The notes beneath the pieces were generated by a model. The model did not search any database, had not been told where the DNA came from, and saw nothing but the letters and a program-made list of their open reading frames with translations. This document shows positions 32,502 through 62,396 of a stretch of DNA of 64,000 nucleotides, one piece after another. Positions within the stretch are counted from its first letter, which is position 1; each line of letters begins with the position of its first letter. A program made the translations under genes and the position numbers. The stretch lies in the NCBI RefSeq assembly GCF_055900595.2, contig NZ_CM148325.1; one strand, written 5' to 3'.

Positions 32502-32873
32502 AGCTCCTCCTTAATGACAGGGTTGCGAAGCCCTGATTCTCTTCAGGGTGAATATTAAAGATAACACAAACATTGCGTAACGATTTGATAACAACCCAAA
32601 TTGATAAAAGAGGAGAAACCTTGTGGCAAAGCAAATGAAAACCCCGCCGCAGCGGGGTCAGGGATCAGTGAGTAATGATCCAGAGGAGTTCGGCCCAGAA
32701 GAGCATCGACAGAGAAAATGCGCCCATCCAGGACCAATATTTCATATTTGTGTTGATCATAGGCTACACCCTTAACGGTTATTACTTTGTGTTGAGATAA
32801 CTCAACCTGTTATTGCTGCGGTGTATTAAAAGCCCTTTAATTCATTAAAAATGGGTAATAAGAATGATGATAA

Positions 32874-46775: not shown

Positions 46776-46820
46776 ATGAAAGCGATTTTCGTACTGAAAG
46801 GTTGGTGGCGCACTTCCTGA
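46776..46820 (+). CDS. trpL: trp operon leader peptide
   Basis: atgaaagcgattttcgtactgaaaggttggtggcgcacttcctga encodes [14 protein letters not shown] with tandem Trp codons. Confidence 0.92.
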
Positions 46821-46862
46821 AACGGGCAGTGTATTCACCATGCGTAAAGCAACCAGATACCC

Positions 46863-46890
46863 AGCCCGCCTAATGAGCGGGCTTTTTTTT
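46863..46890 (+). terminator. trp attenuator
   Basis: agcccgcctaatgagcgggc hairpin followed by T8. Confidence 0.9.
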
Positions 46891-55321: not shown

Positions 55322-55660
55322 TGGCAGGTTTTAAAAAATCAAATAAGATATTGTATCTGAAAGAAAAAACAGGATTTTGAGATGCTTTTTTATACCGTTT
55401 TTCAGCGTTTTTAACTGCCTGATTTTATTGAAATCTTTTTTAGTTTTGCAGAAAGGATTTTTTGATCGATTGCTTTAATTTTATACATTCCTGATAACGG
55501 AAATTTTTTACCCGTTGACAGTTTTTATCCTCCGGGGCTATATTTCCAACGCGTCAGCAAAATCTGGCGTCGGGATTGGAACCCCGGATGTTTACGGAGC
55601 GATATGAGACGCGCCCGCGTCTTTTTTCATATCGTTTGCACAGTCACATTCGCGATTTAT

Positions 55661-55737
55661 GGCGGGCTGTGTGGGGGAGCCGAAAGGCTCGCCGGTTTCC
55701 GTACCCGGTAGTTCCAACCCCGCACAGTTCGCCACCA
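55661..55737 (+). other. structured element 1 (tRNA/tmRNA-3-prime-like, ends CCACCA)
   Basis: 77 nt; 13-bp outer stem GGCGGGCTGTGTG / CGCACAGTTCGCC (with G-U pairs) enclosing a GAGCC-GAAA-GGCTC hairpin; shares a 26-nt core with element 2. Confidence 0.4.
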
Positions 55738-55791
55738 TGATGATTGGAACCTGAAGGTGGCGATAATTTTCAAATGTACGGAGTTATCGTT

Positions 55792-56352
55792 ATGCCCACT
55801 CAAATTTCTGTCGACACTCTTCCTGCAATCACCCACAACCAGGTCCCCGTTATTACAACTGAACTTCTGGCGCAGTTATACGGAACAAAAATCAAAAACA
55901 TTTCTGATAACTTTCTGAACAACACGACGCGATTCGTGGTAGGAAAGCATTACTTTAAAATTGAAAAAAACGAATTACGCGAGTTTAAGAACAGACCCGA
56001 AACAATCGGGTTAGTTGGTAAAAATGCCCGCTCCCTTATCCTCTGGACAGAACGTGGCGCAGCCCGCCATGCCAAAATGCTCGAAACCGATCAGGCATGG
56101 GAAGTGTTCGAAAAACTGGAAGACTGTTATTTCAGCCAAAAACAACCACCAGCAACACAAAACTCACCCACCCCAAATGATGGATGCGCATTACTGATCC
56201 ACTTTGATAAACACGGTCAGGTAGAGTTCACAGAAAAAGTCCCCGCCGATGCGATGGTATGCACTCTGGAACGGTTTAAATTTTATCTGGAGCAACACGG
56301 CTGGCTCGTTGCCCGTAAAGAACAACTGGTGGAAAGGCTGATGCAGCTTTAG
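55792..56352 (+). CDS. phage antirepressor-like protein with N-terminal ORF6N/KilA-N-type domain
   Basis: Start taken at the ATG with GGAG RBS; translation ...VPVITTELLAQLYGTKIKNISDNFLNNTTRFVVGKHYFKIEKNELREF... resembles ORF6N-family phage proteins. Confidence 0.6.
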   Translation: MPTQISVDTLPAITHNQVPVITTELLAQLYGTKIKNISDNFLNNTTRFVVGKHYFKIEKNELREFKNRPETIGLVGKNARSLILWTERGAARHAKMLETDQAWEVFEKLEDCYFSQKQPPATQNSPTPNDGCALLIHFDKHGQVEFTEKVPADAMVCTLERFKFYLEQHGWLVARKEQLVERLMQL

Positions 56353-56402
56353 CAGATATAACAAGTGTTTTTTCTCGTATGCACGCGCACATATGAATTA
56401 TT

Positions 56403-56459
56403 GTGGGGCGCATGGGGGAGCCGAAAGGCTCGCCGGTTCAACTCCCGCCAGCTCCACCA
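56403..56459 (+). other. structured element 2 with ssrA (tmRNA) 3-prime-end-like sequence
   Basis: Core tgggggagccgaaaggctcgccggtt shared with element 1; last 25 nt GGTTCAACTCCCGCCAGCTCCACCA match my recollection of the tmRNA 3-prime terminus; followed by a T5 run. Confidence 0.45.
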
Positions 56460-56584
56460 TTTTTGACAGGACTGCAACCGGACATCGACAATAAAAACAG
56501 ATAATTACGGACACTGACCAGACAACAAACAGACCTGAACAAGACAAAAATATACACGTGAAATGCACGTGCACTTTATAAAAA

Positions 56585-56612
56585 CCCCAGATTTCACAGT
56601 CTGGGGTTTTTC
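56585..56612 (+). terminator. rho-independent terminator
   Basis: ccccagatttcacagtctgggg hairpin followed by ttttt. Confidence 0.6.
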
Positions 56613-56665: not shown

Positions 56666-56715
56666 TTGACACTGTTTATCCATACAGTTAAAAATAACAC
56701 TGTATACAAACACAG
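56666..56715 (+). promoter_or_regulatory. promoter with LexA (SOS) box upstream of the dinI-like gene
   Basis: TTGACA at 56666-56671, AT-rich -10 near 56689-56695, CTGT-N8-ACAG box ctgtatacaaacacag at 56700-56715, about 15 bp before the start codon. Confidence 0.65.
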
Positions 56716-56730
56716 TGTAGAGGGATTTTT

Positions 56731-56979
56731 ATGCGTATTGAAATCTGTATCGCTAAAGAAAAATTCAGTAAAATGCCAAAAGGCTCTGTACCTGCTCTAC
56801 AACAGGAAATGTCTAGCCGTATCAGAAAACGATATGACGATGTGGAGGTTATAGTAAAATCCGCCAGTAATGACGGACTGACCATTTTAAGAGCCGTAGA
56901 TAAAGAAAACGCTCAGAAGTTCATACAGGAAACGCTGCAGGAAGTCTGGGAAACTGCTGATGACTGGTTTTTTCACTAA
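56731..56979 (+). CDS. DinI-family DNA-damage-inducible protein (prophage-borne)
   Basis: 82 aa; [16 protein letters not shown]...[14 protein letters not shown] resembles DinI (MRIEV...WESADDWF); GAGGG RBS. Confidence 0.75.
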
Positions 56980-57879: not shown

Positions 57880-59520
57880 TCAGAACTCAAAATTCACACC
57901 AGCATTCCACGATGCGGATGACCCACCTGCAGCAACTGCAACTTTTCCTGCCACATTCTCTGTGAAACGGTAGCCCACGCCCACCGCAATGGCCTGCTCA
58001 TCACGGTAACCACCAACGGCTGCTGTCGCGTTAAATTTTCCAACACTGTATGGCTGGAAAAGACCGGCCAGTGCCGCGCTCTGGGCTGCACTCTCCCTTA
58101 ACTCCTTCCGGTTCTCTTTAATCTGCTCCTGCATATTATTCATTCTCTCTGTCGCCATCTTCTGCCAGGCTTCCGTCAAATCCAGACGATGACTGTTATT
58201 CCTTATCGCTGCTGTATTTGAGGCTATTGCTGCATCCGTCTGCGCCACCGCTGCCGATGTGACTGCAATAATATCCCTGCTGAGTTCATCACGTACTGCT
58301 GTAACCTGACTGTCAGTATGAGCACGGGCATCTCTGTATACACCGCCTATCTCACCACGCAGACTGTCTCCCTCTGCCTTCAGTTCATCACGTACTGCTG
58401 TGACCTGACTGTCAGTATGAGCACGGGCATCTCTGTATACACCACCTATCTCACCACGCAGACTGTCTCCCTCTGCCTTCAGTTCATCACGTACTGCTGT
58501 GACCTGACTGTCAGTATGAGCACGGGCATCTCTGTATACACCGCCTATCTCACCACGCAGACTGTCTCCCTCTGCCTTCAGTTCATCACGTACTGCTGTG
58601 ACCTGACTGTCAGTATGAGCACGGGCATCTCTGTATACACCACCTATCTCACCACGCAGACTGTCTCCCTCTGCCTTCAGTTCATCACGTACTGCTGTGA
58701 CCTGACTGTCAGTATGAGCACGGGCATCTCTGTATACACCGCCTATCTCACCACGCAGACTGTCTCCCTCTGCCTTCAGTTCATCACGTACTGCTGTGAC
58801 CTGACTGTCAGTATGAGCACGGGCATCTCTGTATACACCACCTATCTCACCACGCAGACTGTCTCCCTGTGATTTCACTTCAACCCCAAGGTTGCGGGTA
58901 CGATTATCCAGCTCCACGACGAATTCTTTAACAGGGACTGTCTGAGCATTTCCGTCAGCCCTTCCGTCAGCAGTGATTCGGCCTGATGAATCCAGAACAA
59001 AATTCTGGCCTTCAACTACATTTTTATACAATGATGACAATCCCGATGTTGTATTACTAATTTTAATAAAATCCTCAGCGGTACCACCAGCATTAACAGC
59101 GGCGATATAATCATCCTTGTTTTCTGGCTTGATTATTTTTTGTAGTGATTCTTTTGTATCAACAATGGACTTTATATCTTCTGCTTTTATATTTCTGATG
59201 TTTTCGGCTTTTAATGCATCTGAGTAGATGGGGTAAGTTAGCAAATCCTGAGCAACAATATGCCTAGCATTCTCAGGAGCTGCTAATATAGCACGCGTAA
59301 TAGAATCATTCGGGACAATACGCCCTGTATTAGCTCCAGTAATAGTATTAATAAGATTAACATCATTACCTTTTGATATTACTGCCGCACCATTATCATA
59401 CAGAGTAACCTCATATCCATCTACATTAAAACTCTCTTCTGCCATAACCCCCACAGAGTAACATAACAGCGCACCGGTAACCGCCATTGCCAATACATTC
59501 TTTGCCATTATAAATTTCAT
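57880..59520 (-). CDS. YadA-like trimeric autotransporter adhesin (Eib-like), prophage-encoded
   Basis: 546 aa; signal peptide; C-terminus [62 protein letters not shown] matches the YadA membrane anchor; coiled-coil stalk with six 33-aa repeats. Confidence 0.8.
58285..58875. repeat. six tandem copies of a 99-bp unit inside the adhesin gene
   Basis: Near-identical 99-bp units encoding [33 protein letters not shown]; successive copies alternate a synonymous ccgcc/ccacc difference, so the array is effectively 3 x 198 bp. Confidence 0.9.
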
Positions 59521-60545: not shown

Positions 60546-62396
60546 TCACCGTATTCTCTGAAACAGGCCCCAAATCGTCCCAATGATATTATTGACTGTC
60601 ATGTTAGTTGTGCATAACATCCATGTACCAAGCATATGATTGCCAAATAAAAAGCGGATATCTGTAAGTTTATCCGATGACGACGACACAATAACGGCCT
60701 GTCTGATACGATACCCGGGTATTTCACGGGTATTTGTTACCTCATGATTTCGTTCTATGATCCCCAGAACATAAGACCCCACGGAATAAACACTTCCGAC
60801 GCTCGCTGGCTGCCCCGGCTGTCCCTGCGGACCTGCCGGGCCGCGTGCACCTGTATCGCCCTTTAGTCCCTGAGGACCTGCCGGGCCGCGTTCACCTGTA
60901 TCCCCCTTTAGTCCCTGTGGACCTGCCGGACCGCGTTCACCTGTATCGCCCTTTGGTCCCTGTGGGCCACGCTCCCCCTGGGCTCCCAGCTCTTTCCATT
61001 CAGACCAGGGGCCATTACCGGTAAAATTACCAGTAACAGTTCTTACGAACTTTCGTGGTGGGTTCCAGGTTGTATATTCATGCTGGCAATATCCCCATGC
61101 ACCAACTCTTACCTGAAGATAACCCGCTCTCTGAATCGGATAATTATTTTCTCGTGTAGCCCCACTGTCTGATGGCTGATAATAATCACCCTGATCGGTC
61201 ACTCGTCCCAGTCGGTTCAGATCACCATTCAGCAGTTGTCCACGGGCTGACTCTCCTCTTGGTCCCTGAGGGCCTTCCGGACCACGTGCACCTGTTTCGC
61301 CCTTTGCTCCCTGTGGACCTGCCGGGCCGCGTTCACCTGTTTCACCTTTTGGTCCCTGTGGACCTGCCGGGCCGCGTTCACCTGTATCCCCCTTTAGTCC
61401 CTGTGGACCTGCCGGACCGCGTTCACCTGTTTCACCTTTTGGTCCCTGTGGTCCTGCCGGGCCGCGTTCACCTGTTTCACCCTTTGCTCCCTGTGGACCT
61501 TCCGGGCCACGTTCACCTGTATCGCCCTTTAGTCCCTGTGGACCTGCCGGACCGCGTTCACCTGTTTCACCTTTTGGTCCCTGTGGACCTCCCGGATCTC
61601 CTTTATCCCCCTTAGGGCCTTTTTCTCCTCGCTCACCCTTTTCTCCCTTCAGACCCTGAGGGCCTTCCGGACCACGTGCACCTGTTTCGCCCTTTGCTCC
61701 CTGTGGACCTGCCGGGCCGCGTTCACCTGTTTCACCTTTTGGTCCCTGTGGACCTGCCGGGCCGCGTGCACCTGTTTCACCCTTTGGTCCCTGAGGACCT
61801 GCCGGGCCGCGTTCACCTGTATCGCCCTTTAGTCCCTGTGGACCTGCCGGACCGCGTTCACCTGTTTCACCTTTTGGTCCCTGTGGTCCTGCCGGGCCAC
61901 GTGCTCCTGTTTCACCTTTTGGCCCCTGTGGCCCGGTAATGCCTCTTTCACCACGTGCGCCGGTATCCCCTTTCTCTCCTCGTGGTCCCCGGGCAGATGC
62001 AGCTCGTTTCCGGGCTTCCTCCGCCTCAGATGCCGCGGACTCTGCTCTGTGCAGTATGGACTGCACCACAGCCTCCAGCTCTGACAACGCCTTCGGATAA
62101 TAAGGAGCATCTTCCATCTCCATCAGAAATTTATTCAGTGTTCCCGGTGAAGAATCCTCCCTGACCACGATATCTCCCACATACGAAGGACGGTAACCTT
62201 CTGTATTGAGTGTCACCCTGTATATTCCTGGCTCCACATCCATACTGTAACTCCCCGTCTCTTCCGGCATGCCATAAGCCACTGTCGTGGCGATGACTGT
62301 CTCGCTGGTTCTCTTCGCTTTCAGCTCAATAATGCATCCCGGTACCGGTTTTCCGGTTCCGTCCCTCAGCACGCCTGAAATTTTTACAGCCGCCAT
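60546..62396 (-). CDS. phage side tail fibre with collagen-like G-X-Y repeats
   Basis: 616 aa; N-terminus [18 protein letters not shown]...IELKAKR resembles the lambda Stf N-terminal domain; two long G-X-Y blocks separated by an ~90-aa non-collagenous insert; globular C-terminal domain. Confidence 0.8.

Follow-up and report, generated by a model that had tools for sequence, protein, structure and literature searches.

The window, that is, the whole stretch of 64,000 nucleotides analyzed here, includes the junction between ompW and a lambdoid prophage. To the left of the unit considered in this study are trpLEDCBA, yciG, yciF, and yciE and the 3' fragment of ompW, and to its right are the genes for an ORF6N protein, a DinI-like protein, a sigma-like HTH protein, and a YadA-like protein; the lambdoid tail-fibre, lom, and J genes lie further right, all pointing left. 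The unit is situated approximately 185 bp inside the junction, at the tail-fibre end of the prophage, and is oriented so that it would be transcribed into the prophage. This agrees with the earlier note on this DNA, which had placed a candidate small RNA gene at the prophage/ompW junction. The features of the locus are listed in Table 1.

Two other matches of the window to Rfam models, both at the gathering level, are expected host features, namely STnc180 (32631-32833, minus strand, 202.7 bits) and the trp operon leader (46797-46890, plus strand, 92.9 bits). Among the prophage genes, the YadA-like gene (57880-59520, minus strand) contains six near-identical tandem repeats of about 26 amino acids each, and the tail-fibre gene (60546-62396, minus strand) contains long collagen-like G-x-y repeats.

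Table 1. Predicted and annotated features of the putative isrK-C4-ant locus and its surroundings (positions are those of the window)
Feature	Position	Strand	Basis or remark
ompW 3' fragment	55205-55312/55331	-	"OmpW family, missing N-terminus" in an essentially identical (99.3%) genome
-35 hexamer TTGACA of the putative isrK promoter	55515-55520	+	Consensus scan; conservation
-10 hexamer TATATT inside the conserved block CGGGGCTATATT	55539-55544	+	Consensus scan; alignments
Predicted 77-nt primary transcript, an IsrK-family small RNA with its 3' end at the terminator	55551-55627	+	Rfam RF01394
Hairpin 1, GCGUCAG / loop CAAAAU / CUGGCGU	55551-55570	+	Rfam structure, predicted fold
Hairpin 2, with a1 in the loop	55571-55586	+	Rfam structure, predicted fold
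Box a1, UUGGAAC, in the loop of hairpin 2	55576-55582	+	Exact reverse complement of C4 55711-55717
Box b1, UACGGAG, in a single-stranded linker	55593-55599	+	Complementary to the C4 loop 55697-55703
Outer helix CGAUAUG / CAUAUCG	55600-55606 / 55628-55634	+	Read from sequence
Intrinsic terminator, 7-bp stem GAGACGC / loop GCCC / GCGTCTT, running into T6	55606-55623, T6 at 55622-55627	+
C4 antisense RNA	55655-55739	+	Rfam RF01695, 78.9 bits (gathering score 45)
31-codon upstream ORF, overlapping C4, counterpart of Gifsy-1 orf45	55659-55754	+
C4 box b', UUUCCGUAC, hairpin loop	55696-55704	+	Unpaired in the predicted fold
C4 box a', GUUCCAA, unpaired stretch	55711-55717	+	Predicted fold
Box a2, UUGGAAC, second copy of a1	55744-55750	+	ant leader
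Box b2, GUACGGAG, including the Shine-Dalgarno GGAG of ant	55776-55783	+	8 bp with C4 55697-55704
Antirepressor gene ant, ORF6N domain, 186 aa	55792-56352	+	PGAP annotation of a 99.3% identical locus
Promoter + terminator combination of the isrK unit	55515-55627	+	Scan of 64 kb
Second promoter + terminator combination	56463-56611	+	Scan of 64 kb
dinI-like gene	56731-56979		PHROG 189

The putative isrK promoter has an 18-bp spacer, which is not optimal, and its hexamers match 11 of 12 consensus positions in the consensus scan. The -35 sequence TTGAC recurs at this position in each of the 25 related loci described below and is invariant in five close relatives, and the -10 hexamer aligns with that of the P1c4 (former P51b) promoter of phage P1. 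No other promoter-like site on either strand of the window matches at 11 or more of the 12 positions; composition-matched shuffles lead one to expect about 1.1 sites of this quality, so that the promoter taken alone is not beyond chance. The combination of a promoter-like site (at least 10 of 12 matches) with a strong terminator 40-130 nt downstream occurs twice in the window and in none of 30 shuffles. The other combination, TTGACA and GACAAT with an 18-bp spacer followed by a 14-bp bidirectional hairpin (56580-56611), would correspond to a transcript of about 115 nt, for which no Rfam match above noise was found. Thus a promoter-like element and a strong terminator are present as described earlier, and the sequence enclosed by them is 77 nt long.

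For formation of the terminator, the predicted probability is 0.89 with the RNA free and 0.97 with the a1 and b1 boxes blocked. An outer helix that flanks the terminator could form only in transcripts that read through it, and any function of this helix is conjectural; analogous terminator-flanking helices, GGACAC/GUGUCC and GCACAU/AUGUGC, occur in relatives. The ORF list contains no frame lying wholly within 55551-55628, as the earlier note had stated for frames of meaningful length. A 30-aa ORF with a TTG start (55515-55607) begins inside the -35 hexamer, and ORFs with starts at 55576 and 55604 extend through the terminator. The SOS link raised in that note is not borne out at the promoter, where no LexA-like box was seen when positions 55480 to 55550 were read by eye; such a box is located 1.1 kb away, before the dinI-like gene.

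The transcript of about 78 nt that had been proposed to start near 55551 corresponds to a full-length match to the isrK model, covering model positions 1-77 of 77 with 72.7 bits (gathering score 50, E = 2.8e-14). The model c4-a1b1 ("a1, b1 targets of C4", RF03163) matches positions 55538-55590 with 44.6 bits, just below its threshold of 46.7, because the isrK model describes the subfamily of 55551-55627 better. In Salmonella, the Gifsy-1 IsrK was mapped experimentally as a 77-nt RNA (Padalon-Brauch 2008, PMC2330248). Its first nucleotide, deduced by placing the published G28, G31, and C18 on G, G, and C, aligns with position 55551 of the window. The family is listed as Hfq-binding in Rfam. By this homology, 55551-55627 represents the known 77-nt IsrK in an E. 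coli prophage, as a copy that lacks annotation and whose expression is predicted.

The predicted fold agrees with the Rfam isrK structure, two 5' hairpins followed by a rho-independent terminator. Among 16 relatives, compensatory changes are observed at six of the seven pairs of hairpin 1, and the terminator stem is kept. Structure prediction, which had been proposed as a check, thus gave the two hairpins and the terminator, but not a folding energy better than that of shuffled sequences (z = -0.61 for the single-sequence fold). Consequently, the support for a structured RNA is drawn from homology and covariation, not from thermodynamics.

Downstream of the terminator, the window contains a strong match to the C4 antisense RNA, whose mature form would span approximately 55661-55736 by alignment to c4 of phage P1. 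The IsrK boxes a1 and b1 are complementary to the C4 boxes a' and b'. The a-box pairs with C4 in seven of seven positions, and the pairing of b1 comprises 7 bp with one G-U; b1 aligns to the annotated b1 of P1. The second copies of the boxes, a2 and b2, are situated in the ant leader, where the GGAG within b2 ends up 8 nt before the ATG of ant at 55792. The product of ant belongs to PHROG 2379 "anti-repressor" (E = 2.6e-93) and is 69% identical to AnrP (STM2616) of Gifsy-1. The 31-codon upstream ORF stops just past a2, 38 nt before the start codon of ant, and the ORF list contains no frame between C4 and ant, hence no icd-like ORF there.

The predicted duplex energies at the level of boxes are -8.8 kcal/mol for a1:a', -10.1 for b1:b', -8.8 for a2:a', and -13.6 for b2:b'. 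With their own C4, the boxes of the window sum to -18.9 kcal/mol (a1+b1) and -22.4 kcal/mol (a2+b2), compared with -6.5 to -16.9 kcal/mol with other C4s. Whole-molecule duplex prediction and RNAcofold dimer energies gave near-zero or non-specific values and were dropped in favor of the box-level energies, because loop-loop contacts cannot be represented in them.

Judging from these features, the unit is not a stand-alone small RNA gene but the first part of a module similar to immI of P1, comprising IsrK, C4, the a2 and b2 boxes, and the antirepressor. The earlier note had missed the known family and the fact that the unit is probably not autonomous, read-through of the terminator being predicted to give C4 and the antirepressor mRNA; it also had missed that the IsrK boxes appear to be copies of the C4 target sites and that the ORF at 55659-55754 overlaps the predicted C4.

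Of 5426 complete E. coli genomes, about 337 contain a close relative of the module, and about 78 have the arrangement at the ompW junction, many of the closest ones being from poultry. The segment 55505-55800 is 100% identical in E. coli LH50-c (NZ_CP100500) and in NZ_OY754357. Neither isrK nor C4 is annotated in the inspected RefSeq/PGAP E. coli matches (H1 and H58-H82), in which the annotation consists of the ORF6N/Ant gene alone or of nothing. The isrK copies in E. coli O157 and in APSE phages were listed previously by others.

For comparison across related loci, viral contigs were scanned with a pattern, and about 80% of the 120 resulting matches were due to chance. We retained 22 loci (21 unique sequences), requiring hairpin 1 with at least six of seven pairs and a downstream C4; together with the window, P1, and Gifsy-1 they form the set of 25 loci, several of which are near-duplicates, so that all counts refer to sequences and not to independent events. 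The positions of GCAAAATC, CGGG, and TT were specified in the pattern used for scanning and are therefore conserved by construction. The hairpin-1 loop GCAAAAUC owes its invariance within the set to this pattern, and no conserved partner for this loop was found in any related locus.

A TTGAC -35 sequence, a (G)GCTAnnnT -10 sequence, both hairpins, and, 72-88 nt from the start, a hairpin with a T-run are shared by nearly all of the 25 loci. Three loci depart from this: the terminator hairpin of L044 is weakly predicted, and in L063 and L093 the script initially halted at a T-run located earlier. Counted over its five free positions, the a-box exists in 13 versions among the 25 loci. Each locus contains both an exact C4 complement and an exact second downstream copy of its own a-box (25 of 25), compared with none of the 554 cross-locus combinations, that is, pairings with a different a-box. 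For the b-boxes, the mean complementarity is 7.6 nt (b1) and 9.6 nt (b2) within a locus and 5.8 and 6.9 nt, respectively, across loci, the signal being less clean because all b-boxes contain the Shine-Dalgarno core.

In five close, near-identical enterobacterial copies, the a- and b-boxes have been swapped independently, and each swap is present in all three places. The a- and b-boxes are UUGGAAC and UACGGAG in the window, UUAGCAC and UACGGAG in pPE4, UUAGCAC and CGAAAC in YYZ-2008, UUGGCGU and GAAAAAGG in phi296, and UUGGCGU and UCACCG in Gifsy-1. The box pair of the window, which occurs in none of the relatives compared, differs from those of Gifsy-1, P1, and the compared Stx-phage copies, and thus the IsrK of the window is expected to act only on its own module. 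The module of the pPE4 phage (L124; PP818812, "Actinobacillus phage vB_Apl-pPE4", positions 640-990) is 94% identical to that of the window, the main difference being the three-place a-box swap; the recorded host of this phage is Actinobacillus pleuropneumoniae, a label that looks odd.

Another group of loci has leaders of the Pseudomonas type. In L008, L013, L033, L042, L048, L055, L063, L069, L104, L114, and L116, a hairpin GGCGG-ACAC-CCGCC that overlaps b1 competes with the terminator. For about 14 Pseudomonas-type relatives, blocking of a1 and b1 raises the predicted terminator probability, obtained by an explicit terminator search that included these loci, from at most 0.4 to 0.7-0.98. 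This modeling points to attenuation by C4 among the Pseudomonas-type loci, which it does not do for the window.

The closest experimentally studied counterpart is the Gifsy-1 module, which has 82% nucleotide identity to that of the window. The two share the 77-nt IsrK with two hairpins and a terminator, the promoter block CGGGGCTATATT, and the order of isrK, C4/orf45, and the ORF6N antirepressor gene. The differences between their boxes make cross-reaction unlikely. Further, orf45 of Gifsy-1 overlaps the start codon of anrP, whereas the upstream ORF of the window ends well before ant; this gap means that the coupling by overlapping codons cannot operate in the same way here. The Gifsy-1 module follows the Q-like antiterminator gene antQ in the nin region and has isrJ as its downstream neighbor, whereas that of the window adjoins the attachment site beyond the tail-fibre genes and is followed by a relic C4/ssrA joint and the dinI-like gene.

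This relic (56365-56459) looks like the remnant of a second isrK/C4 unit, in which a T-run is accompanied by the 5' half of a C4 resembling that of Gifsy-1, 25 nt being identical to the real C4. It is fused at GCCGG/TTCAACTCCCGCCAGCTCCACCA to a copy of the ssrA 3' end (22.5 bits with the tmRNA model), and the sequence from 56431 onward matches the ends of ssrA-integrating phages. The whole looks like a recombination joint of a C4 gene and an ssrA-type attachment arm. A tRNA or tmRNA gene at the tmRNA-like match 56417-56459 was rejected: ARAGORN finds none, and the match belongs to the relic joint. Further downstream, the segment 56666-56979 contains a LexA-box-like sequence CTGTATACAAACACAG (56700-56715) between a TTGACA/AAAAAT promoter and the dinI-like gene. 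Thus a gene that is probably SOS-controlled adjoins what would be an SOS-independent antirepressor switch.

The immI regions of P1 and P7 have the same succession of elements as the window: the promoter P1c4, hairpin 1, hairpin 2 with a1, b1, a hairpin with a T-run, c4, a2, and b2 over a ribosome-binding site, with the boxes matched three ways. The a1 and b1 sites upstream of the c4 antisense RNA in immI of both phages were reportedly described by Citron and Schuster in 1990. P1 differs in having icd between c4 and ant, whereas in the window, which has no icd, b2 covers the ribosome-binding site of ant itself; the antirepressors are of the Ant1/2 family in P1 and of the ORF6N family in the window. 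No counterpart of the C1 operator of P1 was seen in the module of the window. In P1, c4 blocks the downstream ribosome-binding site of icd-ant via a2 and b2 (P1 record annotation; PMC12197685).

Two other systems can be likened to the module by description. In phage P4, the processed CI antisense RNA is encoded between the upstream and downstream target copies seqA and seqC under one promoter, and SeqA was called a structural homolog of IsrK by the authors of the IsrK study (PMC4825925). P4 CI causes premature transcription termination, whereas the terminator of the window is predicted to form without C4. AgvB and AsxR, anti-sRNAs of E. coli O157 prophages, are target mimics (Tree 2014, as summarised in PMC12197685). 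If IsrK is a decoy, they have in common with it that a short phage RNA with a copy of an mRNA target site titrates a regulatory RNA; they act on host sRNAs, whereas the target of IsrK would be the antisense RNA encoded in the same operon, and there is no sequence relationship.

The type member of the family, the Gifsy-1 IsrK, is well characterized by experiment. The isrK promoter drives anrP transcription by read-through, and the resulting long RNA is translationally silent; when supplied in trans, IsrK raises anrP translation 139-fold in a manner dependent on box pairing (Hershko-Shalev 2016, PMC4825925). The compensatory pairs G28A/C162U and G31A/C159U were analyzed in that work (PMC4825925), and in our alignment G28:C162 and G31:C159 fall in a1 and the a' box of C4. 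In cis, G28A and G31A raise basal anrP expression (PMC4825925). The Gifsy-1 orf45 is translated, with its nucleotide sequence conserved and its peptide sequence not (PMC4825925). The published model combines a switch of the long mRNA between two folds with translational coupling via orf45 and does not use C4 as a repressor (PMC4825925). Finally, the Gifsy-1 IsrK accumulates as a stable RNA (PMC2330248).

Taken together, these data indicate that 55551-55627 probably encodes an IsrK-family RNA that is the terminated 5' leader of an immI-type switch controlling the antirepressor. Its most likely function, by analogy with the studied relatives, is that the terminated leader pairs with C4 and relieves the block on antirepressor translation. 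According to the consensus and the alignment with the Gifsy-1 start, a sigma-70 promoter (55515-55544) would start transcription at about 55551. Most transcripts would end at the intrinsic terminator and yield the 77-nt IsrK, as shown in Gifsy-1. Since the terminator is predicted regardless of box occupancy, IsrK would be made constitutively whenever the promoter fires. From the read-through transcripts a C4 of about 76 nt would be cut out, the remainder serving as the ant mRNA, as seen for P1 c4 and Salmonella STnc1160. The boxes b' and a' of C4 would pair with b2 and a2, and as b2 is the ribosome-binding site of ant, Ant would not be made; such a block was shown for P1 c4 on icd-ant and is suggested in the window by complementarity and covariation. 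Pairing of a1 and b1 of IsrK with a' and b' of C4, both in trans, as the free 77-nt RNA, and in cis, inside the long transcript, would take C4 off the ant leader and turn Ant translation on. Ant would then inactivate a prophage repressor, as its family membership suggests.

The same elements could instead form a leader that acts in cis only, with the terminator restricting how much transcription reaches C4 and ant; the short RNA would then be an inert by-product. A hairpin with a T-run is indeed conserved between b1 and C4 from P1 to the Pseudomonas-type phages, the b1 hairpin pattern of the latter resembles the C4-dependent attenuation described for P4 CI/seqA, and the G28A and G31A substitutions have their effect on basal anrP expression in cis (PMC4825925). 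However, the terminator is predicted whether the boxes are free or not in the window, Gifsy-1, and P1 (0.89, 0.99, and 0.88, respectively), and an inert by-product is difficult to reconcile with the pairing-dependent activation by the short Gifsy-1 RNA in trans (PMC4825925) or with the stability (PMC2330248) and Hfq binding (Rfam) of IsrK. We therefore consider a purely cis-acting leader unlikely.

Much less probable still is a chance adjacency of promoter-like and terminator-like sequences giving no transcript. The frequency of promoter-like sites, close to that in shuffled sequences, and the fold z-score of -0.61 would agree with it, whereas the full-length Rfam match (E about 1e-13), the conservation of the hexamers and the terminator in relatives with diverged surroundings, the absence of the promoter and terminator combination from all 30 shuffles, and the experimentally mapped homolog (PMC2330248) speak for a genuine gene. 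The least credible reading is that the product is a small protein rather than an RNA regulator, the candidate being a 35-codon ORF (55604-55711). Its ATG follows b1, a copy of a ribosome-binding site, with the Shine-Dalgarno-like GGAG 4 nt upstream, and orf45 in the same region of Gifsy-1 is translated (PMC4825925). But many relatives, among them Gifsy-1, L105, and the Pseudomonas types, lack an ATG after b1, the ORF starts inside the terminator stem and runs through it, the orf45 peptide is not conserved while the nucleotides are (PMC4825925), and the counterpart of orf45 in the window is cut to 31 codons.

For the preferred reading, an immI-type switch with IsrK as its terminated leader, two framings stand, namely a trans-acting decoy of C4 and a fold switch of the long mRNA with coupling via the upstream ORF. 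Constitutive expression of STnc1160 strengthened the toxicity of IsrK (PMC4825925), which does not fit a simple decoy model and argues against it. As a tentative proposal, which we hold to be possible rather than probable, IsrK may be a dedicated target mimic of C4, so that one promoter makes both the repressor RNA, by read-through, and the decoy, by termination; in that case antirepressor synthesis would be under an RNA-only toggle, set by how efficient the terminator is, and new immunity specificities would arise via a three-place box change, the box pair of the window being one private "address". If this is true, the published Gifsy-1 model of an sRNA acting on its own mRNA would be recast in terms of P1 c4.

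The system is not of a new kind; what is new is an unannotated member of a known family with its own box specificity. It adds an unannotated regulatory RNA gene and a partner C4 to the ompW-integrated lambdoid prophage, where the module plausibly controls SOS-independent prophage induction via the antirepressor, as in Gifsy-1. For studies of phage immunity, the strict three-way matching of boxes over 13 specificities and their modular swapping among near-identical copies should be useful. The finding also ties the literature on Salmonella IsrK to that on P1 c4, which were kept separate in a recent review (PMC12197685).
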